Of a stretch of DNA of 64,000 bases, positions 3,401 through 58,957 are shown piece by piece. Location: the NCBI RefSeq assembly GCF_046119375.1, contig NW_027362772.1, positions 206,336,001 through 206,400,000 on the forward strand, written 5' to 3'. The notes under the pieces are model-generated. The model was not told where the DNA came from and did not search any database. It worked only from the letters and a program-made list of their open reading frames with translations. Made by a program: the position numbers and the translations under genes. The DNA comes from Phyllobates terribilis (Eukaryota). Every line of letters starts with the position of its first letter. The first letter of the stretch is position 1.

Positions 3401-4350
3401 CTAGCAGTCCTGACTACTGCAGCTCAGGGCTCCAGGTGGTGTGGCAGGGACTGGATATAGTACAGAGGGGGCTTTAAAGGTCACAATTTTGTGAACTTCT
3501 AGAGATGTTCAATCTATTTTTTCTGCAATTTTGCTGTCAACCTGGCATTTTAGCAAATATTTATTATACTACCGTATTGCGATGAATTTTGTTTTCCAGC
3601 CTTTAGATTATTATCATTGATGGTTTTCCGTTAATTGCACCAACATCTCTCCAGAAAACTGCTGCTACAATACACAATCCAATATTTTTAGTTTGTCTCG
3701 TATCAATAAATTCCATAAAAGTAGTAGGTAAATACACCATCAGCGCACTTATTTTTTGGCCTGGCATCAAGGAGGCAACGTTTTATTATTTGCACAAAAA
3801 AACTGTAGTAGTTGGACTTTAACTAACACATCAGGCCGCTGTGATATAAGCAGATTCCTATTACCCCTCCTTTTACAAATCACATTTCCCATGGTTGCTC
3901 TCTGGGTGCTGCCTGCAGAATTTTGACAGGTTATAGTTTTTTATGGTGCTGCTCTCTGTTATTACCAAGGGCTCGTTCACACCGATCCAGCTATCCATCT
4001 TTTTTTCCTATGTGGCATTAACACTGATGCAAGAAATTATCCCATAATTTGCTATGGGATCGTTCCCATTCATCTGGAGCATCAGTTGTCGACTTGGACC
4101 CTGTAAGGAGCTGGATCTTAAAAGAAACTTTTTACCAGGTTCTCCCAATATAAAGTATGGCCACCACCTTTACTAACTGTTTACAGCATTCTAGTATGCT
4201 GTATGTGAGTCCCCAATCCCCTCTGCATAGTAAAGAAAAAGACCTTTTATTATCAGATCGTACAGTCCGGTCCGATGGGTGTCTCTGGTCCTAATCGCCT
4301 CCTCTTTTTCCTCAATGGCCATCATTTTTTTCTGTTTCATGTGGATGATA

Positions 4351-5578
4351 TGTAGCACCCTGAGGATTCGGCTGCTACAGGAGTATTGCACCTCAAGCCA
4401 GAGGTGTGATATTCCACTCCCGGGTAAGGATGGAGTGTGGAACTGAGCTCGGTTAGCTGCATGCACTACATACATCCCATTTCCGAGGAGCAGACCGACG
4501 GTACTCCCACTTAGAAATGTGCAGGTACGACCGAGTCTGTTCCTGGCTGGAGTGGGAGGGGGGTGGAACATCCCATGTAGTGTAGGGGCAGATAGGGGGA
4601 GCAGCCTGGGTAAAGATAGGAGCTCATTGGGTGCTGGTCACCTGAGCTCACACATAGAGGGTGTATATAAGGTGGGCACCAACTAAGAACAGGGTCAGAT
4701 GCAGAGAACAAGTCAGATGCAGAGAACAGGTCAGTTGCAGAGAGGAAGTCAGAGAGCAGAGAAGAAAGACCCAGAGCGAGAGAGGAGAAGAGAGAGAGAG
4801 ACCCAGAGGGGGAAACAGCAGAAAAGGACTCCAAGATCCCAACTTAAATCCCCGGGTGAAGAGTCGGCGCAGGGTACCGGAACCCAAGCTGGTGGGGGGG
4901 CAAAACATACCCCAGCCAGAGACCGGAGACCGTGGGCAGCGTTTGCCACGGTCACCCACCACATCCACCCCGAAGGCACACCACATGAAGGGTCAGGGAA
5001 CCCAAGGCCAAGGGTGTCCCAACAGAAGGCCCGAGGGAGCTGGACCTAGGTGGATCACTGGTGGGGACGGCCAGAGAACGGGACAGAAGGAGAGCTCAGG
5101 GCCACGCTCCGGACTTGTTTGGGGGTTGGCTGGATCCAGGACCTGGTGGACGCAGCACGGCTCGGGTGGTCACTCGAAGCTGGAGTGACCAGTACAACAT
5201 CTGCAGTAAGTAAACACCCTTAACTGCACAACCCGACTCTGTCTTCATTGCCGTCTGCACTGCACCACCACAACCCCCATCCTCTGCACCTGTCCCCCCT
5301 GAGGCTATACCCCTCCCGTTGGGGGTTATCCCACCAAGCTGCGCACCCACCATCAGCCTCAGCGGACCCTGCTGCAGCGGCGGCCACAGTGACCGCATCA
5401 CAACGGGTGGCGTAGTCGACACAAAAGAACTCTTAATAACATCTGTAGGACTGCCACAATACAACTGAGTTTGACACCCTGGGCACGGACCGGGTCACAG
5501 CCACTCGGAAGACTACAACTCCCATCTGATCCGGCTCCGGATATTCCCCCTAAAGAATATGGCCCAGGGGGCGCGTCA
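4351..5578 (+). repeat. 5' LTR of element 1
   Basis: Direct repeat of 8097-9326 (offset 3746). TATA-like TATATAA at 4664-4670 and AGTAAA poly(A)-signal variant at 5209-5214. Confidence 0.93.
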
Positions 5579-5582
5579 ACTT

Positions 5583-5600
5583 TGGCGTAGTCGGCAGGAT
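5583..5600 (+). promoter_or_regulatory. Primer-binding site complementary to tRNA-Ser(AGA/UGA)
   Basis: TGGCGTAGTCGGCAGGAT is the reverse complement of the vertebrate tRNA-Ser 3' end ...ATCCTGCCGACTACGCCA (from memory). It lies 4 nt after the LTR end. Confidence 0.88.
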
Positions 5601-5837
5601 TACGTGCCCGCAACACCCGGGTACTGCGTGCCTGAAGAAAAGTGCAAGTTTACCTCAGAAAGAAGTCTCCCGCCGGTTCCGGAGGGTCCACGCCATCGGA
5701 CCCCATCACAGATCGTTTCCCGCCGATTGTTCGCCATTTCCAGCTTGTTCCCGCCATCTGCAGAGTTTCCCGCCACTGGGCGACGCTTCCCGCCAAATCC
5801 GAAGATTTCCCGCCTTGGAAGAGCAGCGGACGCCATT

Positions 5838-7613
5838 ATGGGCGTGCCAAAGGAGGGCAAGAGGCCGCCTCCCATCGTGGGCCAGGACAGAAAATGGCGC
5901 CAAAAGTGGAAACCGCCCCCACCAACAGAGACTGTGATGCTGGAGGTGTCTGTCAGCGTGAAAGAACTACCCCTGGAGCTGACAGTCACCGAGTTGCCCC
6001 GGGACCGCCCTCGAAGTGGGAGGAGACGAAAGAAAAGAACGAAGATGGGTGCCGCCTGGAGCAGTCTGGAGCGAGCGCACCCGGAGGCAAGAAGCCTGGA
6101 GAGGAGTCTGGAGAGAGCTTACCCGGAGATGGAGAGAAAGCAGAGCAGCACCGGCCCGCTGGCCAGGAGCCTGCTGGAAGAAGAGCAGAGCAGCACCGAC
6201 CCGTTGGTCAGGAGCCTGCTAGACACCACGACCCCACTAGGCCTAGTGGAGGTCCTTGCACAGCTCCCCCGAGACCGGGAGTGTGCACAGACTGCCCTGG
6301 AGGGCCTCGCACGGAGGATGGCCCGGGTACAGCGCGAGATATTGGCGGAATGGAGCCGGGAGATGGCCCAGCAAGCTGAGACCAGTCAACGGAGCACACT
6401 ACCCTGGAAGAGGAAACAGACCGCCTCTGAGGATGGCGCGGGAGGACCAAAGGCCGGAGACGGCGCCGAGAAGGGAGCCGGACGCAAGGAGGCAGGTAAA
6501 GGGGACGCCTATACCCCAAGCCGGGAAACCGCCCACCTGCCCCAGCTCCCCGTCGCAGAGCCCGAAAGTCCCCCTGCTGTGCCCGTAGCCGCCATGTCAC
6601 CGCTATGGACTAGGCCCCGACCGGAAGCCGCCGCAGCGACCCCTGTGACGTCACGCGCCTCGACCCGGAGCGTGACAAAGCAGGAAATACCACCAGCCTG
6701 GTCGCAAGGCCTAGTACCCCCGGGCGCCGCATCACCAACAGCGCCCCCTACCTCCGCGGAGCCTCCGGCCTGGTCGCAAGGCCAGGTAGCCCAGGGCGCC
6801 GCCGTATTAACGGTGCCCTTCACCTTCCAGGTGCCCCAGGCCTGGCCGCAAGGCCTGGGCAACCCGGGCGCCACCACCACCGCGCCCGCGCCCGTAAAAC
6901 CAAGGGTGCCACACCTGGGGGAGGACTTGTTCAGCCAGCTCACATGGCCGGACGGGCGGCCCTTCATCTGGCCCGAAGAATTCCATGAGCTGGAACGGCA
7001 GCAGAGACTAGGGCCCTTGTGTGAGCCCCTGATTCCGGCTCCGAAGCCCGTGGCACGGGTCTCGCCTCCTCTGGAAGAAGCCCAATTTGAGTGGGACCCC
7101 ACCGGAGAAGACCTAATGGGGTTCACTCAGGAAACCAGGGCAGCTGCAGCGGAGCGTGCTGAGTGTTGCCGACAGCAGCTCGAAGAGTTTGCGAGGGAGC
7201 GGAGAGAGAGGTGGGTCCGGGAACAACAGGCCCAAATAAGGAGCGCCGAGCAGAAGAGCCGAACCAGGAGGGACCCCCGTGCAGCGCACAGTCCCCGTAC
7301 CACCGGGACTGTAATAAAGTTTAACCTGCAGCATGGGTGGGGCTTCATCAGAGACAACAACACCCCCGGCGACGTCTTTGTCACGCGCAGAGACGTGGAG
7401 TCCCATCTGCCGGAGGGGCACAGAGGTCGTGACCTTTATATCGGGGACGAGGTCACCTTTACCCGGCACAAGTGTGCCAAAGGACCTTACGCCCTCCACG
7501 TACACCGCCTGACGGAGGAGGAGTTGCGGTGCGAGGAGGAGGAGCAAGAGGACCCGGACGGGTCTGAAGTTACAACCAGCTACAAGCAAAGAGCAGGAGG
7601 AAGACGCCGTTGA
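5838..7613 (+). CDS. ~591-aa protein: basic/helical N-terminus, Pro/Ala linker, EWDPTGEDLMGF motif with coiled coil, C-terminal cold-shock domain (~7302-7511)
   Basis: The frame is open from 5559 to 7613. TGTVIKFNLQHGWGFIRDNNTPGDVFVTRRDV...RDLYIGDEVTFTRHKCAKGPYALHVHRL matches the CspA/Y-box CSD pattern (RNP1 GxGFI, RNP2 DVFV, terminal KG-x-x-A-x-x-V). The start is placed at the ATG conserved in copy 2 (DAIM). Confidence 0.85.
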   Translation: MGVPKEGKRPPPIVGQDRKWRQKWKPPPPTETVMLEVSVSVKELPLELTVTELPRDRPRSGRRRKKRTKMGAAWSSLERAHPEARSLERSLERAYPEMERKQSSTGPLARSLLEEEQSSTDPLVRSLLDTTTPLGLVEVLAQLPRDRECAQTALEGLARRMARVQREILAEWSREMAQQAETSQRSTLPWKRKQTASEDGAGGPKAGDGAEKGAGRKEAGKGDAYTPSRETAHLPQLPVAEPESPPAVPVAAMSPLWTRPRPEAAAATPVTSRASTRSVTKQEIPPAWSQGLVPPGAASPTAPPTSAEPPAWSQGQVAQGAAVLTVPFTFQVPQAWPQGLGNPGATTTAPAPVKPRVPHLGEDLFSQLTWPDGRPFIWPEEFHELERQQRLGPLCEPLIPAPKPVARVSPPLEEAQFEWDPTGEDLMGFTQETRAAAAERAECCRQQLEEFARERRERWVREQQAQIRSAEQKSRTRRDPRAAHSPRTTGTVIKFNLQHGWGFIRDNNTPGDVFVTRRDVESHLPEGHRGRDLYIGDEVTFTRHKCAKGPYALHVHRLTEEELRCEEEEQEDPDGSEVTTSYKQRAGGRRR

Positions 7614-7736
7614 GTGCGGCAGAGCAGTAGATGTAAATAGTTACCCGACCGGGTACTAAAGAAACTGTTATTGCAAATATAGTCCCCGTTGGGACCAGCT
7701 GATGTGAACTGTTCACCCGTATACCCTTAATCCCAC

Positions 7737-7844
7737 AGGCTGAGGACTGTGAGCAGCCATTCCCTTTCCCTCCTTACCAGGCTGAGGACTGTGAGCAGCC
7801 ATTCCCTTTCCCTCCTTACCTGGCCAAGGACTGAGAGCGGCCAT
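7737..7844 (+). repeat. 3 tandem 42-bp units, each containing a GGCTG-N11-CAGCC-type hairpin
   Basis: GGCTGAGGACTGTGAGCAGCCAT twice plus GGCCAAGGACTGAGAGCGGCCAT; a homologous array is present in element 2. Confidence 0.8.
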
Positions 7845-8060
7845 ATCCCTGTATATAGTTGCGCTTCCTAAAGCGCCCCCTACTGGTTTTACAGGAAAAC
7901 CAGTTTTCCAGAGAGACTGTCGCACTGTACCCGGTCACACGTTGCACAGTGACCGGAGGAGGAGCCAGAGGCGACGAGAAAGTTTTATATATATAATGTT
8001 TTATATATTTTATATGTTTATGAAAAAAAATTTGTATGTTTTGGTGTTATTTATGTCTTA

Positions 8061-8096
8061 CAGCCCGAGGACGTGCTGTGATTTACCAGGGGGGAA
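8061..8096 (+). promoter_or_regulatory. Conserved pre-PPT block and polypurine tract
   Basis: CAGCCCGAGGACGTGCTGTGATTTACCAGGGGGGAA abuts the 3' LTR and is 35/36 identical to 43709-43744 in element 2. Confidence 0.85.
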
Positions 8097-9326
8097 TGTA
8101 GCACCCTGAGGATTCGGCTGCTACAGGAGTATTGCACCTCAAGCCAGAGGTGTGATATTCCACTCCCGGGTAAGGATGGAGTGTGGAACTGAGCTCGGTT
8201 AGCTGCATGCACTACATACATCCCATTTCCGAGGAGCAGACCGACGGTACTCCCACTTAGAAATGTGCAGGTACGACCGAGTCTGTTCCTGGCTGGAGTG
8301 GGAGGGGGGTGGAACATCCCATGTAGTGTAGGGGCAGATAGGGGGAGCAGCCTGGGTAAAGATAGGAGCTCATTGGGTGCTGGTCACCTGAGCTCACACA
8401 TAGAGGGTGTATATAAGGTGGGCACCAACTAAGAACAGGGTCAGATGCAGAGAACAAGTCAGATGCAGAGAACAGGTCAGTTGCAGAGAGGAAGTCAGAG
8501 AGCAGAGAAGAAAGACCCAGAGCGAGAGAGGAGAAGAGAGAGAGAGACCCAGAGGGGGAAACAGCAGAAAAGGACTCCAAGATCCCAACTTAAATCCCCG
8601 GGTGAAGAGTCGGCGCAGGGTACCGGAACCCAAGCTGGTGGGGGGGCAAAACATACCCCAGCCAGAGACCGGAGACCGTGGGCAGCGTTTGCCACGGTCA
8701 CCCACCACATCCACCCCGAAGGCACACCACATGAAGGGTCAGGGAACCCAAGGCCAAGGGTGTCCCAACAGAAGGCCCGAGGGAGCTGGACCTAGGTGGA
8801 TCACTGGTGGGGACGGCCAGAGAACGGGACAGAAGGAGAGCTCAGGGCCACGCTCCGGACTTGTTTGGGGGTTGGCTGGATCCAGGACCTGGTGGACGCA
8901 GCACGGCTCGGGTGGTCACTCGAAGCTGGAGTGACCAGTACAACATCTGCAGTAAGTAAACACCCTTAACTGCACAACCCGACTCTGTCTTCATTGCCGT
9001 CTGCACTGCACCACCACAACCCCCATCCTCTGCACCTGTCCCCTCTGAGGCTATACCCCTCCCGTTGGGGGTTATTCCACCAAGCTGCGCACCCACCATC
9101 AGCCTCAGCGGACCCTGCTGCAGCGGCGGCCACAGTGACCGCATCACAACGGGTGGCGTAGTCGACACAAAAGAACTCTTAATAACATCTGTAGGACTGC
9201 CACATAACACTGAGTTTGACGCCCTGGGCACGGGCCGGGTCACAGCCGCTCGGAGACTACAACCCCCCATCAGATCCGGTGCCGGGTATTCCCCTCAAAA
9301 AGGAATATGTCCCAGGGGGCGCGTCA
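8097..9326 (+). repeat. 3' LTR of element 1
   Basis: Near-identical to 4351-5578 except in the last ~125 bp. Confidence 0.93.
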
Positions 9327-10130
9327 GATACGTCCTACATTATCCACATAGTGTCCCCCAACTGCGTTCCTGTGCAGGTGCACGTCTCTCTGCCTTGCCA
9401 TGGGCAGAGCAAGGTACTGCAGTGCGCATTCGCTGGGAACGGCCACAGGGCGCTGGTAACCCAGAAGTAATGCCAGCACATGCGCACTACAATACTGCAC
9501 TCTGCCATAAGCAAGGCAGAAAGAAGTACGCCTGCGCAGCAGTGTGACGGGGGGACACTGTGTGGATGACGTAGGACTCATCATTCACATAAAGCAGGTC
9601 AGGAGGACGGTGATTGCAACGACAGAGGACGTGGCGGATCAAGATGCCTGCCAAACCGGACCATACTGTATGTAGATATAATTAAAGGTCTTTTTTTTGC
9701 TATGCAGAGGGGATTGAGGACATACATGCAGCTTACTAGAATGCTGTAAAAGAGTGGGTAAAGATGGTGGCCGTATTTTATATTGGAAAAACCTGGTCAC
9801 AGATCCCCTTTAAAGCCTGATGACACATGATGCCGTTTTGTGATCAGCTAAGATACAAATAAATTGATCCAGATGGCACAGAAAAATGTAAATATAGCCT
9901 CAAATCATTTCTGGGCTACTAAAGTTACCTGGTATGTCCTCCCCAGTTTATTACAGGCACATTACAGTACCCACTGTGGTAAAGCGACTTGCTCGGCTCT
10001 CACAGAGGCAGACACAGGACACACGTCTCGGGTTAGCTCCCTGCTGGTTTATTATATGGCATAGATTCCAGCAGCGTTCCACAAAAATAAACAAATCCTC
10101 TCTAGGATAAAGGGAAAACAAAAGATAAAG

Positions 10131-18400: not shown

Positions 18401-18976
18401 CGAAGTGCTTTTTTTCACACAAGCAAGGGCATGTGTCATTGGCAGTGTATGTCACATGTCCTTGCCCTATAAGACCAAGCCATTTTCCCCGTCGCCACCA
18501 TTTTCTCACTGCTGCAGCTTCGTGTTAGACGGCACCGCTGTTGCTGTGTGCGCTATACCTTGTTAATTTCAAGCCAATTTTCGCACAAATCTACAGATAG
18601 CTTGGGAGTAGAGAATAGTTGTGATTGCAGTCCTTTTAAGGACTAGGTTACAGCATTTCCTACGACTTTTATCAGGCAGGTCTGTGCTCTTAAATAGATA
18701 GATTGTGGGAGTAAAGACTAATTGTAATTGGAGTCCTTTTCAGGACTAGGTTACATCAGTTCCTATCAGTTTTTGCCAGGCAGGTCTGTGCCAGTGCTGT
18801 GCAAGTTTTTTTCACAGCATTTGGCTGAATCTAGCAAAGCTAATCCTTTTTGGCCTATTGCAGAGTGTGTTAGTCAGTGGAGTAGCCTATCTGTGTTGCA
18901 AGATATACCACCTGTGTATAGAATACCAATTTTTTTACTGCACCTAGTGAAGTAAAATCTTTTGGGCATAGCATCA

Positions 18977-21460
18977 TTCTATTAGTCCATCTATACTGAC
19001 CTCCATCAGGTTGCAAATTGAATATAATTTTTTTCTGCATCTAGCTCTGAAAAAATATTTGGCCTTCTAGCAGTGTGTGGGACTTGTTCTATTAGTCCAT
19101 CTATACTGACCTCCATCAGGTTGCAAATTAAAAATAATTTTTTGTCTGCATCTAGCTCTGAAAAAATATTTGGGCTTCTAGCAGTGTGTGGGACTTTCTC
19201 TATTAGTCCATCTACACTGACCTCCATCAGGTTGCAAATTAAAAATAATTTTTTGTCTGCATCTAGCTCTGAAAAAATATTTGGCCTTCTAGCAGTGTGT
19301 GGGACTTTCTCTATTAGTCCATCTATACTGACCTCCATCAGGTTGCAAACTGAATATATTTTTTTTCTGCATCTACCTCTGAAAAAATATTTGGGCTTCT
19401 AGCTGTGTGTGGGACTTGTTCTATTAGTCCATCTATACTGACCTCCATCAGGTTGCAAACTAAATATAATTTTTTTCTGCATCTAGCTCTGAAAAAATAT
19501 TTGGCCTTCTAGCAGTCTGTGGGACTTTCTCTATTAGTCCATCTATACTGACCTCCATCAGGTTGCAAATTAAAAATAATTTTTATCTGCATCTAGCTCT
19601 GAAAAAATATTTGGCCTTCTAGCAGTGTGTGGGACTTTCTCTATTAGTCCATCTATACTGACCTCCATCATATTGCAAATTAAAAATAATTTTTATCTGC
19701 ATCTACCTCTGAAAAAATATTTGGGCTTCTAGCTGTGTGTGGGACTTGTTCTATTAGTCCATCTATACTGACCTCCATCAGGTTGCAAACTGAATATAAT
19801 TTTTTTCTGCATCTAGCTCTGAAAAAATATTTGGCCTTCTAGCAGTGTGTGGGACTTTCTCTATTAGTCCATCTATACTGACCTCCATCAGGTTGCAAAT
19901 TAAAAATAATTTTTTGTCTGCATCTAGCTCTGAAAAAATATTTGGCCTTCTAGCTGTGTGTGGGACTTTCTCTATTAGTCCATCTATACTGACCTCCATC
20001 AGGCTGCAAATTAAAAATATTTTTTATCTGCATCTACCTCTGAAAAAATATTTGGCCTTCTAGCTGTGTGTGGGACTTGTTCTATTAGTCCATCTATACT
20101 GACCTCCATCAGGTTTCAAATTAAAAATAATTTTTATCTGCATCTACCTCTGAAAAATATTTGGCCTTCTAGCTGTGTGTGGGACTTTCTCTATTAGTCC
20201 ATCTATACTGACCTCCATCAGGCTGCAAATTAAAAATAATTTTTATCTGCATCTACCTCTGAAAAAATATTTGGCCTTCTAGCTGTGTGTGGGACTTGTT
20301 CTATTAGTCCATCTATACTGACCTCCATCAGGTTGCAAACTGAATATAATTTTTTTCTGCATCTAGCTCTGAAAAAATATTTGGCCTTCTAGCAGCGTGT
20401 GGGACTTTCTCTATTAGTTCATCTATACTGACCTCCATCAGGTTGCAAATTAAAAATAATTTATATCTGCATCTAGCTCTGAAAAAATATTTGGCCTTCT
20501 AGCAGTGTGTGGGACTTTATTAGTCCATCTATACTGACCTCCATCAGGTTGCAAATTAAAAATAATTTTTTGTCTGCATCTAGCTCTGAAAAAATATTTG
20601 GCCTTCTAGCAGTGTGTGGGACTTGTTCTATTAATCCATCTATACTGACCTCCATCAGGTTGCAAACTGAATATATTTTTTTTCTGCATCTACCTCTGAA
20701 AAAATATTGGGCTTCTAGCTGTGTGTGGGACTTGTTCTATTAATCGATCTATACAGACCTCCATCAGGTTGCAAACTGAATATAATTTTTTTCTGCATCT
20801 ACCTCTGAAAAAATATTTGGGCTTCTAGCGGTGTGTGGGACTTGTTCTATTAATCCATCTATACAGACCTCCATCAGGTTGCAAACTGAATATAATTTTT
20901 TTCTGCATCTACCTCTGAAAAAATATTTGGGCTTCTAGCTGTGTGTGGGACTTGTTCTATTAGTCCATCTATACTGACCTCCATCAGGTTGCAAACTGAA
21001 TATAATTTTTTTCTGCATCTAGCTCTGAAAAAATATTTGGCCTTCTAGCAGTGTGTGGGACTTTCTCTATTAGTCCATCTATACTGACCTCCATCAGGTT
21101 GCAAATTAAAAATATTTTTTTGTCTGCATCTAGCTCTGAAAAAATATTTGGCCTTCTAGCAGTGTGTGGGACTTTCTCTATTAGTCCATCTATACTGACC
21201 TCCATCAGGTTGCAAACTGAATATATTTTTTTTCTGCATCTACCTCTGAAAAAATATTTGGGCTTCTAGCTGTGTGTAGGACTTGTTCTATTAGTCCATC
21301 TATACTGACCTCCATCAGGTTGCAAACTGAATACAATTTTTTTCTGCATCTACCTCTGAAAAAATATTTGGGCTTCTAGCTGTGTGTGGGACTTGTTCTA
21401 TTAGTCCATCTATACTGACCTCCATCAGGTTGCAAATTGAATATAATTTTTTTCTGCATC
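18977..21460. repeat. Tandem array of ~22 copies of a 110-111-bp unit inside the hAT element
   Basis: ATTAGTCCATCTA recurs at 18981, 19091, 19202, 19313 and onward. Two variant classes (CAAATTAAAAATAAT versus CAAACTGAATAT) are interspersed. Confidence 0.95.
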
Positions 21461-21578
21461 TTACCCAGCCAATAGTTTTGGCCTAATACCACAGTTTGGC
21501 CACTCAGCTCTGCTCGGTTCCCATCCATTGTTTTTTTGTGAAAACAACTCCAGAGTTGTGAATTAGTTAACCACCAAA

Positions 21579-23276
21579 ATGAGTGGAAAAAGGCCTGCTG
21601 CTGGTGGAAAGGGTAATAGGCGTGTTGGGAAGGGGAAAAAAGGTTGTGTCCGTGGGGTAGGTGTTAAAGCAACAGTAACATCTGCAGAAGAAAGACCATC
21701 TTCCAGCCAAACTAAAATGTCTACTTCTTTTAGCGGACAATGTGATAAGATCCCTTTCTTACGGCCACGCCAATTGCTACAAATTCCAGATGAGGCACAA
21801 AAACAGCAGGTGCTTCAACGGATATCAAGTGCTCCTTTAAGTGGGCTCTCCTCCACATCAACTTCAACATCACAAATACTCCAGTCCTCAAAGGTGTCAC
21901 CCCAATCACACTTGCTTCCTCACAGCTCCCAAATCTCCAGCTGCCCGTCTGAGTATGAGGTAGAACAGATGGTTGAGTCTGCAGAGCTGTTTACTTATAC
22001 TATAGCCTGGGAATCAGAGGTCGACTCCAGCGCTTCTGTGAATCCAGACGAGGAAATGATCTGCACTGATGCCCAGAATCTTTATGAGTCGGATTCAGGA
22101 CCAGACGCAGAAGGTTCTGACCATAATGTAGACCCTCATTCCCAAACTGTAACTCCTGTTGGTGGAGACAATGAGGAAGACGATGATGAGACTCAAATAC
22201 CTGATTGGAGCGACAACTTTAGTTTTTTGTCAGGGCAGGAACAGGTTGGCTCTGAGGACGACGGGTGTGATAACGCACAGGGTTATGATGATGAGGTTGG
22301 AGATCCCACTTACTGTCAACCCACAGTCAGCCAAGAGATGAGGTCAGCAGAGGAGGTGGAGGAAGATGCAAGTGACGACGAGGTCAGGTTGCGCCTTCCT
22401 GGACAGAGACGTAGTACTGGAAGCACGTCAACAACTGCATCCTCAAACACAACTCTGCCTCTCACCACAAGTCGTGGTGGCTCTTCAGGTCGCATGGGTG
22501 CTAAGCCTTGCATAGCCTGGGCATTTTTTCAGATCGATAAAGATGACCCAACTCGTGTTATCTGTAACATTTGTCAGCAAAAGCTAAGTAGAGGCCAAAA
22601 AATACATAGTTTGAGTACTTCATGCATGAACCGGCACATGGACATGAAGCATAAGTTGCAGTGGGAAGCTCAGTGTGCTACAATGCGGCCTAGCCGGCAG
22701 GGCCAACCACCGTCTGCCATATCTTGTGCATCCGCGGCCTCTTCATCCTCTGTGACTGAGGGGACAGCAGTCACACCTGTTTTGGGGCGCAGACCTGCCA
22801 CCTCTTTACCCGCAACAGCCAGCGTGATTGGCAGGTCATCATTTTCTTTGGAGGTGGTAACACCAGCTGGTGTTGAGCGCTGTCCGACATCGATAGCACC
22901 ACCTTTGGATCAAGGCAACCTAACATGTCCGCCTGCATCTTCCTCACAGACCGGCAGTTTGCCGGGGACACCCTTATCAACCCCGTCTAAGCACAATAGC
23001 CAGCCCTCGGTCCCTCAGATGTGGACAAGTAAAAGACCATTTCCTCCTAGCCATGAGAAAGCTAAGAGGTTGAATTTCACCATCTGCAAGCTCTTGGCTA
23101 CAGAAATGCTGCCTTTCCGCCTGGTGGACACAGAGGATTTTCGAGACCTTATGTCCGTCGCAGTGCCCCAGTACCAGATGCCCAGTCGGCACTACTTCTC
23201 AAAGAAAGGTGTGCCTGCGCTCCACCAGCATGTCGCACACAACATCACCGCTTCTTTGAGAAACTCTGTGTGTGAC
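21579..23276 (+). pseudogene. hAT transposase, N-terminal half (acidic extension, BED zinc finger), truncated
   Basis: 566 open codons including AWAFF..VICNICQQ..RHMDMKH (BED) and EMLPFRLVDTEDFRDLM..YQMPSRHYFS. It stops at NSVCD and joins Tc1 sequence; the segment with the first catalytic Asp is missing. Confidence 0.9.
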
Positions 23277-23277
23277 A

Positions 23278-24338
23278 CTCCAAAGGTTCTGAATGGGGTA
23301 GAGGTCAGGGGAGCATGGGGGTCACACCATAAGTTTGTCACCTTTTATGCCCATATCAGCCAGAGATGCAGATGTTTTATGTGCAGCATGAGATGGTGCA
23401 TTATCATGCAAAAAAATGATCTTGCTGTGAAATACACGGTTCTTCTTCTTGAACCATGGCAGGAAGTGCTGTTTGAGAAAATCCACATACATTATGGAGT
23501 TCATCTTTAGCGCCTTCAGGGATCCTAAAGGGGCCGACAATCTCTCTCCCCATGATTCCAGCCCAAAACATTACTCCACCTCCTCCTTGTTGGCGCTGTA
23601 GCCGTGTTTGCGTGGGGTGTCCATCAACCAGCCATCCTCCACTCCATCCATCTGGACCATCGAGCGCTGCACGGCACTCATCCGTGAACAAAACAGTTTT
23701 GAAATCAGTCTTCATGTAATGTTTGGCCCACTGGAGCCGTTTCTGCTTGTGTGAAGTGGATAGAGGAGGTCGACAGGATGGCGTATGCACAGCTGCAAAC
23801 CTCTGAAGGACCCTGCATCTTGTTGTTCGGGGGACGTTGGAGGCACCAGCAGCTTCAAAAACTTGTCTGCTGCTATGACAAGGCTTTTTTGCCGCTGCTC
23901 TTTCAACCTGACGTAATTGCCTGTAGGAAAGAGTCCTCAATTTGCCCTTATCAGCACGCACACGTGTGTACTGTGAATCAGCTACATACTTCTTGATTGC
24001 CAAGACACTTCATCCTGATCATCGCACAATGTTGATTGTAGTCATGCCTTGACCTAAACACTCCACAATTTGTTGCTTCTCAGCAGCCGACACATCCTTT
24101 TTCTTTCCCATTTTGGCAGAAAATGTAGGCTGCTTAATAATGTGAGACAGCCTTCTTAAGTAGTCTTGCCTTTCATTGGACACACCTGCCAAACTAATTA
24201 GCACAGGTGTCTGCAATTGCTTACAGTGATATAAAGAGCCCTGACACACATCACCATCAATGAGTTTAACTGACAAACAAACAAATTCTTCCCTTATCAC
24301 TCCTAAACACTTTTTGCATAATAATTTGGAACACAGTG
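23278..24338 (-). mobile_element. Truncated DD37E (TRT-type) Tc1 element, copy 1
   Basis: End CACTGTGTTCCAAATTATTATGCAAA with flanking TA (24339-24340); MGKKKDVSAAEKQQIV; VLFTDEC; GVMFWAGI; FLHDNAPSH..SPDLYPIQ with 37 residues between D and the (E to Q) position; internal stops and frameshifts. Confidence 0.85.
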
Positions 24339-24410
24339 TACATGTGCTTTTCCACAAAACACCAGTGGTTCACGTAGTGAATCTTACAGTTCTAACTTGC
24401 CAACCGTGGT

Positions 24411-26110
24411 CTGTATGGAGTTGTTCAATAAAGGGCCCAAAATTAAGATAACATAGATGGGAGAGGTCTCTATGAATAGGAATTCCTAAGTATTTGATAC
24501 CCTGTGAGGGCCAGGCAAAGGGAAAGTTGGACTGGATGGAATCCTATATGGATTTGGGGAGGGAGACATCGAGGGCCTCAGACTTCGCTGCATTGATTTT
24601 AAAATTTGACCATGTAACAAAGTGATCTATTTCAGCCATAACAGCATGGATGGATATATGTGATTGAGTGATATATACTAGGACATCATCAGCAAATAGA
24701 GAGCACTTGTACTCGGTGCCTCCCACCTCAATCCACCTAATATTGGGGTTATGGCGAATTTATGAGAGCAGGTGCTCCGTCACTAGGATGTATAAGAGAG
24801 GGGACAGAGAACATCCCTGCCTTGTCCCATTGGTGATTGTGAAAGGTGATGAAAATGTTCTGACGCGCCCCCTGGGCCTTGGGACACCCGGAGCCGGACC
24901 CTTTTTGGTGGATGCTGGTGGTTGTAGTCTCCGTGGCGGCGACCCGGTTCGGTGGCTCAGGGCGGTCAAACCAGTGGCGGAACTATTTATGTGGTTTTGA
25001 TGTTTAAATGTCCGACTACGCCTCCCGTGGATTGCGGTCAGAGTGAACCGCCGCTCCAGGGCAGACCGCTGAGGCTGGTGTTGTGGGTGCAGCAGAGCGT
25101 AGCATAACTCCCCACGGGAGGAGTATAGCCTCAGGGCAGTGTATGCGGAGGATGGGGGTGATGGTGCAGGGCAGCAGCAGTAACGACACGGAGTCAGTGA
25201 TGCAGTCCAGGGCCTTTACTCACAGTTCTTATTATCCAGACCACGTCTGCAGGTAACGGCTGCCCACGTCGTACTGTGCTCACCAGGTGAGGGGCTCAGA
25301 CAACTCCCAGATAACTTTGGAGCGCTTCACAGGACCCCCTTTGTGTGTCCTTTGTCTGGCCTTTCTTACCAACCCTTCTGTCCGGCTGCCTCGGGCCTCC
25401 TCTTGGTAAACTTGGCGCCAGTTTCCCTGACTCTATATGGTGCCTTCCTAGCGGGTGTAGCGAGGGGCTGCGCCACATAAAATGTCACAGCCTCCTGTTT
25501 CTAGCTGAGGGTCGTTTCCTGCCTCCACTAGTTTCGGGGACCGGTCTCCCCCTTTGGCCTGACCCCTCCACGCAGGTGGATTCGGGCGTGCGGTGGCGAC
25601 TCGCCCGTCCGCACCCCTGGGATCCCTTCGTTCCTCGTTCCTGGAGCCTTCTCCGCTCCTCTTCCTTCCTTCTCCCTCTTCCAGGCCTGGGCCTCTGTTA
25701 CTAGGCCCGCCTCCGGAGCAGAGCTCATGCAGAGCCCCTGCTCCCTGCCACTTCTGCTCAGACTTCTCTGCACTGAACTAAGATGGTGCCCACCTTTTAT
25801 ACTCCCTTCTCAATGCACCCAGGAACTGCTTCCTCCCTGCTCCTGCACTACAGGGTTCCCCTTCCTCAGTGTTCCCTCCCCCCACTCCAGCCAGGGACAG
25901 GGACTGTCATGCCCATCTCAGGGGCATATTGGTCGCCCTGCCCCACGGCAATGTGGTGTAATGCATGCAGGTGTCGGGTCCTGATCCACACTACATCCTT
26001 ACCTGAGAGTGAGATATCACACCTCTGGGTGAGGTGCAATACCTCTGTAGCAACCGAGCCCTCAGGGTGCTACAGTTCCATTTATCTTCAGCCTAGGTGA
26101 CGTATTGCGA
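24411..26110 (-). mobile_element. L1/Tx1-clade LINE reverse-transcriptase fragment, split by a solo LTR
   Basis: Rejoining across 24861-26078 gives [55 protein letters not shown]. Confidence 0.85.
24861..26074 (-). mobile_element. Solo LTR of a third subfamily of the CSD-element family
   Basis: In element orientation it begins TGTAGCACCCTGAGG and ends GGCCCAGGGGGCGCGTCA, like the element 1 LTRs. 4-bp TSD GTTC (24857-24860 and 26075-26078); TATAAAAGGTGGGCACC and AGTAAA are conserved. Confidence 0.9.
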
Positions 26111-26488
26111 TACAGGGCCGTGATTTTGGCTATAAAAGGGTCCCCTAGACCCCTACCCCAAGCTTTTTAAGAGAATCATATATGGCGTGCCAGGAGACTC
26201 TATGGAATGCTTTCTCAGCATCCAACGAGAGTATCTAATTACAAATTTTTAACTGCATCTAGCCCAGGAAATACTTTGTGCCTAGTAGCAGTGTCTGCTA
26301 GTCAGCGGATTATCCCGGCTGTTAAGCAAGCTACACCACCTGTAGTTTGGACACTTAATTTTTTCAAAGGAAATGCTTCGGGACCACGGGATACTCAGTG
26401 AAGAGCATCAGGAGGCACCCCAAGGCATAGGGGCTGGGACTGGCAGTAGGATGCCTTGCGGTGGACAGCCGAGCTCGATCCTTATAAA

Positions 26489-26610
26489 AGCTTTTTAACT
26501 GCAGCAGCTTTAGTGGACGCTACTGGAGCTGGAATTACGCGGCTGCTGGCATGAGACTTGCCCTCCAATAGATCCTTGTAAATGGATTTAAAGTGTATTC
26601 ATTCAAATTA
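26489..26610 (-). pseudogene. 18S rRNA-derived fragment (~122 bp) embedded in the hAT 3' subterminal region
   Basis: Minus strand TAATTTGAATGAATACACTTTAAATCC..GGAGGGCAAGTCTCATGCCAGCAGCCGCGTAATTCCAGCTCCAGTAGCG..GCTGCAGTTAAAAAGCT aligns with the conserved SSU segment around GTGCCAGCAGCCGCGGTAA, roughly 85-90% by eye. Confidence 0.88.
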
Positions 26611-27116
26611 GAGAGACAATTTAAATTAAAAAGCTTAGAGCTGCCTCCACCACAGGGGGGCTCGCTCGACCCACCAGCGGACAGGCACCAGTATTGGGAG
26701 AGGGGGGCTGGCCGTCAGGGTTCACCGCGGCTCTGGCACAAACCCGGCGACGCGGAGGTGGCATGGGCAGGAGCGGACTGAACGTGTCGGCTTCTCACTT
26801 TTTGGATTTTAGAAGGGCATGACATGCCTATATCTGTGTCTCCCCTTCCTTTTACTCCTCCACCTCTTTTCTTTTCGCATGACTATATGTACTTGTCACT
26901 TTTCCATGTGTTAGTTGTGTCTTCTGAGCAGTTTGTCAGCTTTTGGACACCTTTGAAGGTGTTTTCTATGTGTTTCTATGTGTTTTTGTTTGCCTGCCAT
27001 TGGTTCTAACGGTGTTCGAAGGTGTTCGACGAACAGTTCGACGAACAGTTCGGCGAACACACGGGTGTTCGACGAACTGAACCGAACTCGAACACTACGG
27101 GGGTGGCTCAACACTA

Positions 27117-29071: not shown

Positions 29072-29109
29072 AAGCTTGATGATTGGTTAAAATCACCCTA
29101 CCAACCGTT

Positions 29110-29388
29110 TTAAGCTTTCAAATTACTAATCATGTTTATCTGTATCTTGGCTGGAAAATAATTTGGGCTTTGTAGCAGTGTGCAGCACTGATTCTATTAG
29201 GCCATCTATAATAAGCTCCACCAGATTTAAAATTACTAATCATGTTTATCTGTATCTTGACTGGAAAATAATTTGGGCTTTGTAGCAGTGTGCAGCACTG
29301 ATCCTATTAGGCCATCTATACTAAGCTTCACCAGATTTAAAATTAATAATAATTTTTAGCTGCATCTAGCCCGGAAAATAATTTTGGG
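29110..29388. repeat. ~2.5 copies of a 110-bp unit related to the upstream satellite
   Basis: TAATCATGTTTATC at 29127 and 29237. The shared blocks CTATTAG.CCATCTATA, TGCATCTAGC and ATTTGGGCTT..TAGCAGTGTG also occur in 18977-21460. Confidence 0.8.
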
Positions 29389-29506
29389 GCTCCGAGATGC
29401 GCAAGACACATAAGTGCCTTCTTGCTGCACTACCTGCAACATGACCCTCATATTGTCAGAATTCGAAGTAATCATGACTACTGGGTTGCCACACTCTTAG
29501 ATCCCC
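29389..29506 (+). pseudogene. Fragment of a second, paralogous hAT transposase
   Basis: Encodes ..LLHYLQHDPHIVRIRSNHDYWVATLLDP, paralogous to ~28350-28460. Its continuation (CATGTGCTTTTCCACAAAAC..CCAACCGTGG) resumes after the Tc1 TA site at 30883-30952 and 24341-24410. Confidence 0.75.
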
Positions 29507-30880: not shown

Positions 30881-30952
30881 TACATGTGCTTTTCCACAAA
30901 ACACCAGTGGTTCACGTAGTGAATCTTACAGTTCTAACTTGCCAACCGTGGT

Positions 30953-32652: not shown

Positions 32653-33030
32653 TACAGGGCCGTGATTTTGGCTATGAAAGGGTCACCTAGACCCCTACCC
32701 CAAGCTTTTTAAGAGAATCATATCTGGCGTGCCAGGAGACTCTATGGAATGCTTTCTCAGCATCCAACGAGAGTATCTAATTACAAATTTTTAACTGCAT
32801 CTAGCCCAGGAAATACTTTGTGCCTAGTAGCAGTGTCTGCTAGTCAGCGGATTATCCCGGCTGTTAAGCAAGCTACACCACCTGTAGTTTGGACACTTAA
32901 TTTTTTCAAAGGAAATGCTTCGGGACCACGGGATACTCAGTGAAGAGCATCAGGAGGCACCCCAAGGCATAGGGGCTGGGACTGGCAGTAGGATGCCTTG
33001 CGGTGGACAGCCGAGCTCGATCCTTATAAA

Positions 33031-33152
33031 AGCTTTTTAACTGCAGCAGCTTTAGTGGACGCTACTGGAGCTGGAATTACGCGGCTGCTGGCATGAGACT
33101 TGCCCTCCAATAGATCCTTGTAAATGGATTTAAAGTGTATTCATTCAAATTA
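33031..33152 (-). pseudogene. Second copy of the 18S rRNA-derived fragment
   Basis: Copy of 26489-26610 at offset 6542. Confidence 0.88.
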
Positions 33153-35055: not shown

Positions 35056-35142
35056 TTAATGCAAAAATCCCCATTTTCTTCTCAGGTAAAGGACTTGTTC
35101 ACTACTGGACAACCCTTTTTTTAATGCCCTCATTGTGCTTAA

Positions 35143-40808: not shown

Positions 40809-41303
40809 TGTAGCGCCCCGAGGGTTCGGTTGCTACAGGGGTATTGCACCTCAACCAGAGGTGTGATATTCCACTCCCGGGTAAGGATGGAGTATGGACC
40901 AGGGCTCAGTAGCTGCATACACACACTCACCCCATTTCCGGGGGACAGCTCGACGGTGCTCTCATTTAAATGCAGGCACAACTGACCATGTCCCTGGCTA
41001 GAGTTCGGAGGGGGGAGAGAACCCAGTGATGTAGGAGCAGAAGGGGATGGTTTCTGGAGCATAGGAAGGAGCTCATTGGGTGCAGGTCACCTGAGCTCAG
41101 ACACAGAGAGGCAGATAAAAGGTGGGAGCCATCTTTAGAGAGGGGTTCAGTACAGTGGAGAGGTGACAGGGAGCAGAGGCTCTGTAGGACTGCCACAGCA
41201 TTTGGTCTGACCACCCTGAGCCGCGGGATCGGGTTGCCACTACTACCCCCATCATCGCACTGAAGCCCGGTTCCGGGTGCCCCACGGCCCAGGGGGCGAG
41301 TCA
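40809..41303 (+). repeat. 5' LTR of element 2, carrying a 755-bp internal deletion
   Basis: Matches 43745-44125 and 44881-44994; the segment 44126-44880 is absent. Confidence 0.9.
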
Positions 41304-41307
41304 GCTT

Positions 41308-41325
41308 TGGCGTAGTCGGCAGGAT
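41308..41325 (+). promoter_or_regulatory. PBS, tRNA-Ser(AGA/UGA)
   Basis: TGGCGTAGTCGGCAGGAT, identical to the PBS of element 1. Confidence 0.88.
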
Positions 41326-41421
41326 TGTGACCAACCCAACACAAACGGGTATTGCATGCCTGAAAAGAGACTGTTTCACTGTATTGAAAATGGCGCCCGC
41401 CCCAGAAGAACAGACGCCATA

Positions 41422-42940
41422 ATGTGCGCGCCAAAAGATAACAAGAAGCCACCTCCCATCGTGGGCCAGGTCCCAGAATGGCGCCAAAGAAGGAGCCCAC
41501 CCCCAACAGCCATGAGTGCGGCTGTAGAGATGTCCATCAAGGTGGGGGGGCTGCCCCTGAGAGTGATTGTCAGCAGATTGCCCCAGGAGCACCCACAACA
41601 GGGGCGGAAAGAGAAGAAAACCGAGGGGCAGGGTGTGGTTTGGATCAGTCTCGCCAGACCACACCCGGAGATGGAGAGGAGCGTCAACTCCAGCACCCTG
41701 GCAAGCGGCCTGCTGCAGGCCGAGTCTCCATACAGCCTCACGGAGCTGTTGGCTCAGCTCCCCGCAGAAGACCCTGAGTTCTTGCGGACTGCGCTGGAGG
41801 AGCTGGACCGGAGGATGGTCCGAGCGCAGAAGGACGTCATCGCCGGGTGGAAAGAGGAGATGGCCCGGCGGGTCGCGACCCGGCAGCAAGAGACGCTGCC
41901 AGCACCCGGCGGCACGCCTGCCCCCGAGGACGGAGAGAGGAGACCGGAGGCAGAGAACAGCGCTGCCGCGGAGGCAGGTAAGGAAGACACCCCTGCCTCG
42001 GGTCCTGACACCGAAGGCTTACCCCTGGATCCCGCCGTGGAGCCAGAAGTCCTGGGAGCCGCTGCAGCTTCCACGCTCCCACCGCCGGTACGTAGGCCCC
42101 AAGCCGCGAACACCACTGTTGAACCACGCCCCACGTCGTGCCCCCTGACCCCGGAGGCGGTCGGAAGCAGCCCGCTCCAGGCCCGGTCGCAAGGCCTGAC
42201 CACCCCAGGCGCCTCCCAACCGGGTGTGCCCCCGGTCTAGAAACCACCACCCCTGGGCGCGGACCTGTATGCCCAACTGTCTGGTCCAGATGGAGAGCCA
42301 GTCCCCGTACCAGAGGGATGAGTGCACCCCAGTCTGCGGAAAAGCCTGCCCGCGGAGGCCGGAGCTCCTCTGCTTTCACTCCCACCTGACCCACGGCCTG
42401 TTGAAGTTCCCCAGCTCCCGGTGGAGGAGGTCCAATATGAGTGGGACCCGACAGGAGAGGACCTCATGGGGTTCTCGCAGGAGACACGGGCGACCGCAGC
42501 CCGCAGACGGGAGTTCTGTTACCGACAGGTGGCGCAGTTCGAGCGGGAGAAGCGGACACGGCGACAGAGGCAGGAACAGCTGCAGGCCCGAAGCGCGGAG
42601 CTGAAGATGCGCGTCCGGCAAGACCCCCAGGCTGCGCGCGGTCCCAGAATCATCGGGACCGTAGTCAAGTTCCAGCACGACCACGGACACGGATGTGTTC
42701 GTTACCCGGAGAGACGTGGAGAGCCACCTGCCGAAAGGCCACCCGGAACGGGATCTGTCTCCAGGAGACTTGATGTCCTACACCTGACACCGAGGCCTAA
42801 AAGGATGGTATGCCCTTCATGTCCAGAGGATAAGAGAGGAGCAGCACCCCGAACCAGAACCCGGATACCAAGAGGACCCGGACGGGTCTGAAGATCAGTA
42901 TGAGGAGGAGGGAGGAGCAACAGGAGGATACCACTACTAA
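41422..42940 (+). pseudogene. Disrupted homolog of the CSD ORF
   Basis: Collinear with 5838-7613 (PPPIVGQ, LAQLP..TALEEL.RRM, EWDPTGEDLMGF, GTVVKF, DVFVTRRDVESHLP, ALHV, QEDPDGSE). In-frame stops at 42238 and 42319, a frameshifting deletion through RNP1 near 42690, and a stop inside the CSD. Confidence 0.88.
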
Positions 42941-43037
42941 TGAGCAAGTGTGAGTAGTTACCCGACAGGGTACAAGGAACTGTTTTTGTTGCCCCCGTTG
43001 GGACTGTTGCCCGTTCGAAGCTAACCCCCAAGTCACC

Positions 43038-43173
43038 TGGCTGAGGACTGAGAGCAGCCATCCCTCTTCCCCACCTGGCTGAGGACTGAGAGCAGCCATC
43101 CCTCTTCCCCACCTGGCTGAGGACTGAGAGCGGCCATTCCCCTTTCCCATCCGGCCGAGAACTGGGAGCGGCC
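43038..43173 (+). repeat. 4 tandem ~38-bp hairpin units
   Basis: TGGCTG-N11-CAGCCA twice, TGGCTG-N11-CGGCCA, and CGGCCG-N11-CGGCCG. Confidence 0.8.
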
Positions 43174-43744
43174 GACCCCTATGGGTGGTTGCGCTTCTTG
43201 GAGCGCCCCCTATTGGTTTTATAAGGGTACTGCAGCGTCTACCTCTGGACAAAAGCTCATTTGGCGGGGCCGAAAATGTGGTCCAACTACCGGATCACCT
43301 ATGCCCTGCAGCCACGCCCAGGGCCTACGTTGGAAGTTTACGAGCGGGTCCCTCATGTTTGAAAGTTTGCTGAAGTTTTGCACCTTACTGAAAAAAAAAA
43401 ATGGACACCTGGTCGCAAGTTGCACAGTGGCCAGTGAAGAAGAGAATTTACTTAAAAAAATGTCTTACCTGAAAAGTTTTATATGCTGCTAAAAGAGTTA
43501 CATAATAGTGAAAATGTTGTTGGTAAAAGAAGTTCCGGTAATATTAAAAATGCCTTATAATGTCTAGTAAAGAAAAGTGTTGGAAAAGAGAAAGTGTTTC
43601 CCATAAAGGAAATTGCATAATGTCGGCCGTTTTCTAATGTAAAAAAAAAAAAAGTTTGAGAAAGTTTTGCATGTCTTGCATGTTTTTGAATTGTCTTTTG
43701 CTCTGTTCCAGCCCGAGGACGTGCTGTGGTTTACCAGGGGGGAA

Positions 43745-44994
43745 TGTAGCGCCCCGAGGGTTCGGTTGCTACAGGGGTATTGCACCTCAACCAGAGGTGT
43801 GAAATTCCACTCCCGGGTAATGATGGAGTATGGACCAGGGCTCAGTAGCTGCATACACACACTCACCCCATTTCCGGGGGACAGCTCGACGGTGCTCCCA
43901 TTTAAATGCAGGCACAACTGACCATGTCCCTGGCTGGAGTGGGGAGGGGGGAGAGAACTCAGTGATGTAGGAGCAGAAGGGGATGGTTTCTGGAGCATAG
44001 GAAGGAGCTCATTGGGTGCCGGTCACCTGAGCTCAGACACAGAGAGGCAGATAAAAGGTGGGAGCCATCTTTAGAGAGGGGTTCAGTACAGTGGAGAGGT
44101 GACAGGGAGCCGAGGCTTTGTAGGAGCTCTGCCCAGAAGGCAGGCCTGGAGAGAAGGCCGGGGCCAGAGAGGAGAAGAGGAGAAGGAAGGAAAGAGGAGA
44201 GACAGAGGAGTAGAAAGGCTCCAGAAACAAGAAGGCAGAAGGGACCCTAAGAGAGAGCAGAACGGACAGCAACGGTTGCAACCCGCGTTATATCGGGTGA
44301 AGGGTCAGGCTATAGAAAGGTACCGGATTCCCAAGTTGGTGGAGGTAAATTATCCCTCAGCCAAGAACCAGAGGTCGTGATCATCTATTGGTGCGACCCC
44401 CCGCCAAACCTGCTGGGAAGGCACCATATAGGATAGCGGGAAACGGGGGCCAACGTTTGCCCGCAAAGATCCGCGGTAGCTGGACAGAAGTTTGGTCACT
44501 GGTGGGGCACGAGAGGCCAGAGAAAGGACAGAAGGGAGTCCTGCGCCATACTCCTGAATTGCCTGGGGGTTGACCGAGCCCCTTACCTGGTGGACGCAGC
44601 ACGGCTTGGGCAGTCATTGCTGACAGAAGTGACATGGATAACAACTGTGAGTAAAAACCCTGGACTGCATCATTGGACTCTGAGTGATTTCTGCTGCGCC
44701 TGCACCATCACCCCCAGCATCCACCTACATTGCCCTGAGGCTACACTCTTCCCGGTTGGAGTTATCCTATCCCTGTGCTGCCCACCAACACCAGCCTCAG
44801 TGGTCTGCCTTGCAGCGGCGGTCATCCCTGACCGCAATCCACGGGTGGCGTAGTCGGACATTCATAACTCTACAAATAGACTGCCACAGCATTTGGTCTG
44901 ACCACCCTGAGCCGCGGGATCGGGTTGCCACTACTACCCCCATCATCGCACTGAAGCCCGGTTCTGGGTGCCCCACGGCCCAGGGGGCGAGTCA
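43745..44994 (+). repeat. 3' LTR of element 2 (1250 bp)
   Basis: Follows the PPT; contains GATAAAAGGTGGG, AGTAAA and a U5 TGGCGTAGTCGG; ends GGCCCAGGGGGCGAGTCA. Confidence 0.92.
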
Positions 44995-46159
44995 GATGAG
45001 CGAGCATGCTCATTACTCAAGATTTACAAGCATGCTCAGGTGTTTTCCTAGTATCTTCAGCGTGCTCAGGTGTTATGTTTTCATCACTCAGTGCTCACGA
45101 TTTGCGACTGTTTGACAGCTTTAAAACACGTGAGGAATGCCTGTTTCTTAGGCATTCCTCACATGTATTAAAGCTGTCAAACAGTAGCAAATCATGAGCA
45201 CTGAGTGATGAAAACATAACACAGAGCACCACTGAAGATACTCGGCGAGCACGCGAACATGCTCGCCGAAAGGGTTAACAGAACATACTCGCCCATCACT
45301 ATCTCCTATGTATGTATGGCCATCATTGCTGTCTCCCTATCAATTAATCTTTGGGTTGCCATGCACTGTAAATGAGTTGATATGTCCAAGAAAGGTAAAG
45401 GATCCAGCTGCCAGTATAAATAAAAAGCATAAAATTGTATTTAATCCATTAAAAAGTGAAAAAGTATACATACTTTGCAAAAGGTTGAAGTGAATACCCT
45501 CCATAAAACCCAATATGTTTATATGAAATACCAGGACTTAGAATGCTGTAGCGCTCGAAACACATTGGTTATATAATCCTTCCAAAGATCATAAATGATA
45601 AGTATACACTATACAGTGTTCGCACGTCAGGCACACATGGGAAGCACTTCAGATGTAATGTAATGTGCCAGTTCCTTCATGTACTCCTGTTGAAAAAAAA
45701 GAGAGATCTTCAGTTTACTTTGCATTTTCATTATGTTTCAGAAGAGTGGCCATAAATGAAGAAGGTGGCCTATTGGCTTATCCGAGCAGATCATTGCATA
45801 AAAACAAGTAGTAGAAGTTTCAATTAAAAACCGGTTTATTTCAATGTCTATTAAAAAATCAGCACGGCAGGATGGCAAGACATCTGTTTGACGTATTTCG
45901 ATTATTCGGTCTTAACCATACTTCATACCCTCCTCACAGATGTGTCACAGTACTATGTAGTAACAGCCTGCCCCTCGATGACAGTACGAGCATTACTATA
46001 TATGACGAGCCCCTTTTCAGCCACCCAAGTCTCCATTTAATTCCATCTCCAAATCTGACGTCGTAATTGTGAAGGGTTTGATTACAGTGATCATCTCCTT
46101 CTTTGTGTATTGCTTCCTAATAAATGTGCTCTATATTTTAAAGAAATGTTTAGTTCTAG

Positions 46160-58954: not shown

Positions 58955-58957
58955 GTT

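Follow-up and report, generated by a model that had tools for sequence, protein, structure and literature searches.

Poison-frog LTR retroelements with a selected cold-shock domain and their likely Gypsy/Ty3 helper

The genome of Phyllobates terribilis harbors a family of LTR retroelements whose single gene carries a cold-shock domain (CSD) and no other recognizable domain. We are almost certain that this family is non-autonomous and helper-dependent, and that its CSD is selected. The evidence comes from one structurally complete copy in a 64-kb stretch of DNA (hereafter, the window), from related copies sampled across the genome, and from a co-resident gag-pol family that shares the replication signals of the CSD elements.

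The element and its relatives

The original prediction described a complete LTR unit with one intact ORF of about 591 aa, and both parts of this description held (Table 1). LTRs bounded by TG and CA, a 4-bp target-site duplication (TSD), a primer-binding site (PBS) and a polypurine tract (PPT) are all present. The two LTRs are 98.3% identical, and all of their 14 mismatches fall at LTR positions 948–1212, the first 947 positions being identical. That the differences are confined to the last 280 nt of the LTR suggests that two parents recombined, as opposed to divergence with age. The PBS, which we take to be of the tRNA-Ser type, follows the 5' LTR after a 4-nt spacer; its pattern was matched three times within the window, against 0.01 matches expected by chance.

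Table 1. Features of the CSD element and of a related older element, in window coordinates
Feature	Position	Strand	Basis or remark
Left TSD, GATA	4347..4350	+	LTR/TSD comparison
5' LTR, TG...CA	4351..5578	+	LTR self-comparison
TATA-like TATATA and AGTAAA poly(A)-like signal within 5' LTR	4664; 5209	+	putative roles
U5-PBS-leader block	5273..5782	+	~72% identity with the gag-pol helper family; sole block common to both
In-frame ATG inside U5	5559..5561	+	frame open across the PBS into the ORF
PBS	5583..5600	+	pattern search; same as the helper's
Single ORF, 591 aa	5838..7613	+	ORF translation
Conserved N-terminal helical segment	6201..6389	+	residues 122–184; pN/pS ~0.2–0.25; pLDDT ~60
Invariant WD-x(5)-LxGF-x(2)-E motif, then 47-residue helix	7092..7268	+	residues 419–477; pN/pS 0.17
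CSD	7302..7505	+	residues 489–556; pN/pS 0.11
PPT, AGGGGGGAA	8088..8096	+	
3' LTR	8097..9326	+	LTR self-comparison
Right TSD, GATA	9327..9330	+	
Older element of the same superfamily (family B)	40809..44995	+	TSD GATG; same PBS at 41308; ORF broken

In the ORF, Pfam matched no gag, knuckle, PR, RT, RH or IN, PF00313 being the only profile above its cut-off; the gag and pol (PR-RT-RH-IN) of an autonomous Gypsy/Ty3 element are thus absent from 4351–9326, as had been claimed. The frame is also open from the U5 ATG, which would give a protein of 684 aa. The leader codons upstream of 5838 are close to neutral (pN/pS 0.88), so a peptide started in U5 is probably not selected, and we rejected the translated leader as a selected peptide on this ground. 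Since the first conserved block starts near residue 120, the real start codon may lie downstream of 5838. Four contigs of guessed RNA status cover the element stretch without a start, a strand or a supported splice joint and are evidence neither way. Rfam gave no match approaching its gathering score, either for the element or for the family B 3' UTR.

Elsewhere in the window, two related solo-LTR-like copies on the minus strand (24917–26079 and 31463–32621, ~68–74% identical to the LTR of the element) sit in a 6.5-kb duplicated block, and a 110-bp satellite array occupies 18941–21549. There are also ORFs that we take to be Tc1-like (697–1143) and hAT-like (21579–23510 and 26978–29071).

In the 10.57-Gb genome searched (G000), the C-terminal 150 aa of the ORF gave 40,985 first-look candidates, and all 150 of those scored were 97–99% identical; PF00313 gave 33,380 candidates. 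An exact pattern of LTR end plus PBS occurred 49,775 times, and its reversed control not once. We sampled the first 30 consecutive matches of this pattern on contig C1, all lying in one stretch, its first 4.9 Mb. Seventeen of these junctions belonged to the CSD family, 12 to gag-type elements, one to neither and none to both; the CSD family therefore outnumbers its likely helper in the sample. Applied to all junctions, this proportion suggests ~28,000 copies (binomial range 19,000–37,000, from a single 4.9-Mb stretch), which at ~4.9 kb per copy is roughly 1.3% of the 10.6-Gb genome, solo LTRs excluded. Thirteen of the 17 sampled family copies carried the CSD, eight of the 17 had a fully open ORF, and four lacked the CSD. 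The LTR pairs of most copies are 99–100% identical, which points to a recent burst, and no pol was found between the LTRs of 19 close copies. The family often forms tandem LTR-internal-LTR-internal-LTR arrays (L044, L047, L318–L320 and L329), one of them consisting of four units of deleted copies.

Natural copies form successive subfamilies, 35–86% identical across the aligned protein. Indexed protein searches returned P0002 and P0003 from P. terribilis and P0004 from Ranitomeya imitator, and RefSeq gene models with the family domain exist in three frog genera. An exhaustive profile search gave 668 protein matches at E ≤ 0.001. Among the 150 of them listed, seven had a single matched stretch, all named poison-frog proteins, and these added R. 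variabilis (three) and Anomaloglossus baeobatrachus (two). The remaining listed matches were multi-domain proteins whose scores build up over repeats; single-domain relatives of weaker score in other animals could thus rank below those listed. In one of the gene models, P0003 (706 aa), a DDE_Tnp_4 transposase is joined to yet another CSD subfamily, probably through a gene-prediction fusion.

The cold-shock domain and selection on the ORF

AlphaFold2, given an 18-sequence alignment, predicted the ORF protein to be mostly disordered (mean pLDDT 47). Its only confident parts are a helix at residues 431–477 and a five-stranded domain at 487–557, with a weaker helical segment at 122–184 and disorder in the remainder. 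The N-terminal model is of low confidence, the conserved ordered part there spanning only ~65 aa, and no capsid-sized fold was predicted. Neither Pfam, HHalign, a PDB profile search nor Foldseek found any likeness of the ORF to a capsid. HHalign of the family profile against the helper Gag gave a probability of 0.07%, and the 50 matches listed by Foldseek from a viral library included ones of the CSD/OB type and no retroviral Gag. A complex predicted from helper Gag residues 22–205 and ORF residues 408–568 scored 0.01, which is evidence neither way.

The identity of the C-terminal domain is clear. PF00313 matches it with an E value of 2.6e-8 (34.1 bits, cut-off 27) and matches 18 of 18 aligned family members. 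The pLDDT over the domain is mostly ~80, the five-stranded fold is of the OB type, and the Foldseek PDB matches listed for the ORF model are all cold-shock domains, the best having an rmsd of 1.4–1.9 Å to Csp and YBX structures. The original prediction had placed the CSD at the very C-terminus; the domain is there, but ~35 residues follow it. A longer, Y-box-like loop had also been proposed. The loop after RNP2 is indeed longer than that of CspA, but its sequence is family-specific (RRDVESHLxxGHxxRDL), and YBX and bacterial Csp score alike against the domain.

Aromatic residues at the RNP1 and RNP2 positions are invariant in all 18 members, as are the aromatics of GWGF and FV and several basic residues, and the protein is predicted to bind RNA. 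Two aromatic positions of YBX1 and CspA are altered in the family (the W before FN is K or R, and the H after VFV is T or N), so that the predicted nucleic-acid binding may be weaker or differ in specificity. With regard to the donor of the domain, YBX1 (E 1.3e-5) and CspA (2.9e-5) score the same for practical purposes, their order flipping with a wider profile and in Foldseek, which ranks bacterial Csps slightly ahead of YBX. These comparisons do not favor Y-box proteins over bacterial Csp as the putative donor. Against the family CSD profile, members score 55–143 bits, while the highest-scoring non-member of the proteins fetched reaches 36 and host CSDE1 retrocopy domains stay below 4. The ESM Atlas, queried with the homologue P0002, returned only generic CSD clusters with scores of at most 0.85, and scans of IMG/VR and of metagenomes gave one and two weak partial CSD-like matches, respectively. 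Two further sequences were seen: a processed CSD-gene copy broken by insertions (G000:C1:734437889–734449260, loci L171–L172), which we take to be CSDE1-like, and a decayed pseudogene (L161), presumably YBX-like. A search for host YBX genes with L161 as query returned L161 itself alone.

The ORF is under purifying selection in three protein blocks, which bears out the earlier claim of a maintained gene. Within 11 diverse copies of family A, to which the element at 4351–9326 belongs, pN/pS is 0.11 in the CSD, 0.17 in the preceding motif and helix and 0.25 in the N-terminal helix, while the linkers are at ~0.5–0.6; the pairwise counts behind these ratios are not independent, and the subfamilies recombine. 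Between families A and B, pS over the last 152 aa is 0.73 (saturated) and pN is 0.24, and a single-pair Fisher test gives p ~1e-23.

The likely helper and the copies lacking the domain

The gag-type elements of the sample have LTRs of ~1 kb and a 5.9-kb gag-pol internal region with no CSD. L106 carries a PNMA-like gag with a CCHC knuckle, as well as PR, RT, RH and IN in an open frame of 1,448 codons. These elements (e.g., L106 and L100) share with the CSD family the PBS, the LTR termini, a similar PPT and a block of ~72% identity that begins in U5 and ends ~200 nt beyond the PBS, whereas U3 and R show no detectable similarity. A 4-bp TSD flanks 34 of 38 family copies and 10 of 10 helper copies, and the TG-NNNN-CA flank bias is identical for both element types. 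The common PBS, U5/leader, TSD length and target preference make the gag-pol elements the likely helper, and judging by these sequence features they likely mobilize the CSD family. The CSD family has no pol of its own and shares cis signals and an integration signature with an autonomous Gypsy/Ty3 family, in support of the original prediction of a parasite of Gypsy particles.

If the CSD gene were an accessory ORF of a gag-pol parent, and the family merely a deleted autonomous element, gag-pol copies with the ORF should exist. The common U5/leader speaks for such an origin, as do two small chimeras that join a gag start to a CSD-element 3' end. However, none of the 12 sampled gag-pol copies carries the CSD ORF, and the family profile has no match in the six frames of sampled helpers. 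A second PBS type, Ser(CGA), occurs in 2,532 exact LTR-end-plus-PBS junctions, again in CSD-type and gag-type elements; 15 of the first 30 match the CSD-family profile only. Twenty Ser(CGA) loci fetched at length contained no gag-pol element with a CSD ORF in its own sequence, only one nested CSD copy (L245) and the two short chimeras, L248 and L259. An accessory-ORF origin is thus already disfavored in the P. terribilis genome, and we regard it as very improbable. The chimera in L259 (1506–3950) consists of a helper leader and gag start (90% identical to L260) joined to a CSD-element 3' end, and L248 likewise combines a helper-type leader and gag start with such an end. The L259 sequence is suggestive of mobilization by the helper; alternatively, it could have arisen by a nested insertion followed by a deletion.

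Two further observations concern the Ser(CGA)-type elements. A degenerate gag-pol Gypsy with this PBS, a nested insertion, LTRs of 96.8% identity and no CSD was seen at ~58140–64000 of the window and in L031, with a weak dUTPase-like match (E 0.19) between PR and RT. Older CSD subfamilies and some Ser(CGA) gag-pol elements have in common a conserved 3' UTR stretch of ~90 nt (window 43254–43340; L122, L149, L187, L244, L251 and L262); it is unmatched in family A and in Rfam. A drawing of it with a three-way junction and a pseudoknot pairs 96% of cells, with covariation not above that of shuffles, and the stretch is a candidate cis element for packaging or export.

Three sampled copies lack the module of motif, helix and CSD, each through a different deletion, and the three junctions occur genome-wide in 537, 131 and 31 copies (at most one mismatch). 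Given the microhomology at the first junction and the interspersion of its carriers with intact copies, this deletion may have arisen repeatedly. In contrast, the deletion of L292, a carrier of the second junction, recurs in 23 of its 29 nearest other copies, including the nearest 13, which indicates that this lineage multiplied without a CSD of its own. CSD-deleted copies with 99.3–100% identical LTRs form a cluster of their own. Deleted copies nevertheless make up the smaller part of the family (4 of 17 sampled), and every subfamily has retained the gene. Full trans action would let the deleted copies take over; since they stay a minority, a cis bias is needed, and the simplest reading is that the benefit of the CSD is quantitative, partly cis-biased and partly shared. 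An apparent selection signal in the truncated protein of the deleted copies was rejected, since a single outlier (L302) contributed 25 of the 31 singleton changes and intact copies share most of the variants. The mirror image of these derivatives was also seen, in an older multi-copy mini-family (L150, L163, L165 and L184–L204). Its different leader leads straight to an ATG at the CSD itself, so that the ORF (~100 aa) encodes the CSD only.

Possible roles of the protein and comparison with known systems

The reading to which we give about an even chance is that the CSD protein aids RNA stability or packaging and is also able to act in trans. In such a scenario, the LTR would drive a germline transcript, the helper Gag would package it through the common U5/PBS/leader, and the helper RT and IN would complete the cycle. 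The CSD protein would coat the element RNA, as host YB-1 does retroviral RNA, and so raise the share of it that survives and is packaged, while the long helix and the WD motif might oligomerize or recruit a partner. Host YB-1 stabilizes HIV RNA and supports MLV and MMTV production (PMC6040738). A quantitative, partly cis-biased benefit would keep the gene selected and yet leave it usable in trans by deleted copies, which would behave as cheaters.

It is rather unlikely, though worth serious consideration, that the protein instead acts in trans against host silencing or RNA decay, or modifies helper translation, to the benefit of every co-expressed copy; its retention would then rest, with similarly limited probability, on selection among source loci active together in one germ cell. 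The spread of CSD-less lineages fits such an antagonist, and the most conserved feature outside the CSD, a short W/D/F motif modeled with low confidence, is what one expects of a partner-binding motif. Gypsy RNA is, moreover, abundant in poison-frog ova (PMC6278860). Still, a pure public good is hard to maintain at pN/pS ~0.1 across successive subfamilies, and no host target has been identified.

The opposite extreme, an obligate cis nucleocapsid substitute or Gag-tethering adaptor that lets each RNA be packaged only with its own product, could appeal to the gag position of the ORF, to its openness in 8 of 17 sampled copies and to the strong selection. We consider this idea, part of the original prediction, largely refuted and its probability slight: the helper has a CCHC knuckle of its own, no capsid-sized fold is predicted, and the clustering of CSD-deleted copies with nearly identical LTRs shows that such lineages spread. 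It is likewise improbable, if a little less so, that conservation is due to a host-serving protein with a developmental or restriction role comparable to that of Bhikhari Gag. The zebrafish elements Bik-1/2 provide a precedent (PMC12067270), and gene models with the domain are annotated in three frog genera; selection acting between successive dispersed subfamilies, however, argues for selection at the level of the element.

Returning to an RNA-stabilizing or packaging aid, it is tempting to suppose a poison-frog system of three tiers: an autonomous Gypsy/Ty3 helper, a satellite in which an RNA-binding protein evolved by the satellite itself has taken the place of gag-pol, and CSD-less cheaters using that protein in trans. 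With this protein, possibly of non-host origin, the satellite would out-compete helper RNA for particles. We propose this view tentatively, as somewhat more doubtful than the role of the protein itself. If true, it would describe an LTR satellite whose defining feature is an RNA chaperone other than Gag, lasting across two frog families and responsible for more than 100 Mb added to one genome. The system might also serve as a natural test case for two questions, namely what lets a parasite RNA win packaging and how selection on a shared protein persists despite cheaters. Pol-based Ty3 surveys in frogs (e.g., PMC12822217) would not count the CSD family as coding. As in the original prediction, which knew of no description of such a family, our searches of open-literature listings gave no LTR/Gypsy/Ty3 family with a cold-shock domain; the word "cold" is absent from the main text of the frog TE papers checked.

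Among known proteins, the CSDs of YBX1/YBX2, CspA, CARHSP1, CSDE1 and LIN28 share with the family domain the fold and the RNP1/RNP2 positions, but at ~30–36% identity, and the family has its own loop and two changed aromatic positions. An element-encoded accessory protein that favors its own family is familiar from VANC of VANDAL elements, which acts against silencing; VANDAL, however, is a DNA transposon, and its protein binds DNA. TRIM and LARD elements resemble the CSD family in keeping LTRs, PBS and PPT and in using a helper, the CSD element being intermediate in size between the two classes. They are, however, non-coding or carry decaying remnants, with no maintained coding capacity, whereas the ORF of the CSD family is under purifying selection.

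The closest parallels are pol-less LTR elements with a single ORF, namely zebrafish Bhikhari (Bik-1/2) and chicken ENS-1 (PMC12067270), Xenopus 1A11 and Xretpos (PMC4585706) and plant TR-GAG (PMC13570524). Bhikhari, ENS-1, 1A11 and TR-GAG share with the CSD family the LTRs, the absence of pol, one long maintained ORF and dependence on a partner element. Where characterized there, the ORF of Bik-1/2, ENS-1, 1A11 and TR-GAG is Gag or Gag-like (PMC12067270, PMC4585706, PMC13570524), whereas that of the CSD family has no capsid similarity and the CSD as its sole domain, which sets it apart from gag-only elements, whose ORF encodes a capsid. Overall, non-autonomous LTR elements have hitherto been described as non-coding or gag-retaining, while the CSD family keeps an unrelated, selected domain of the RNA-binding type.
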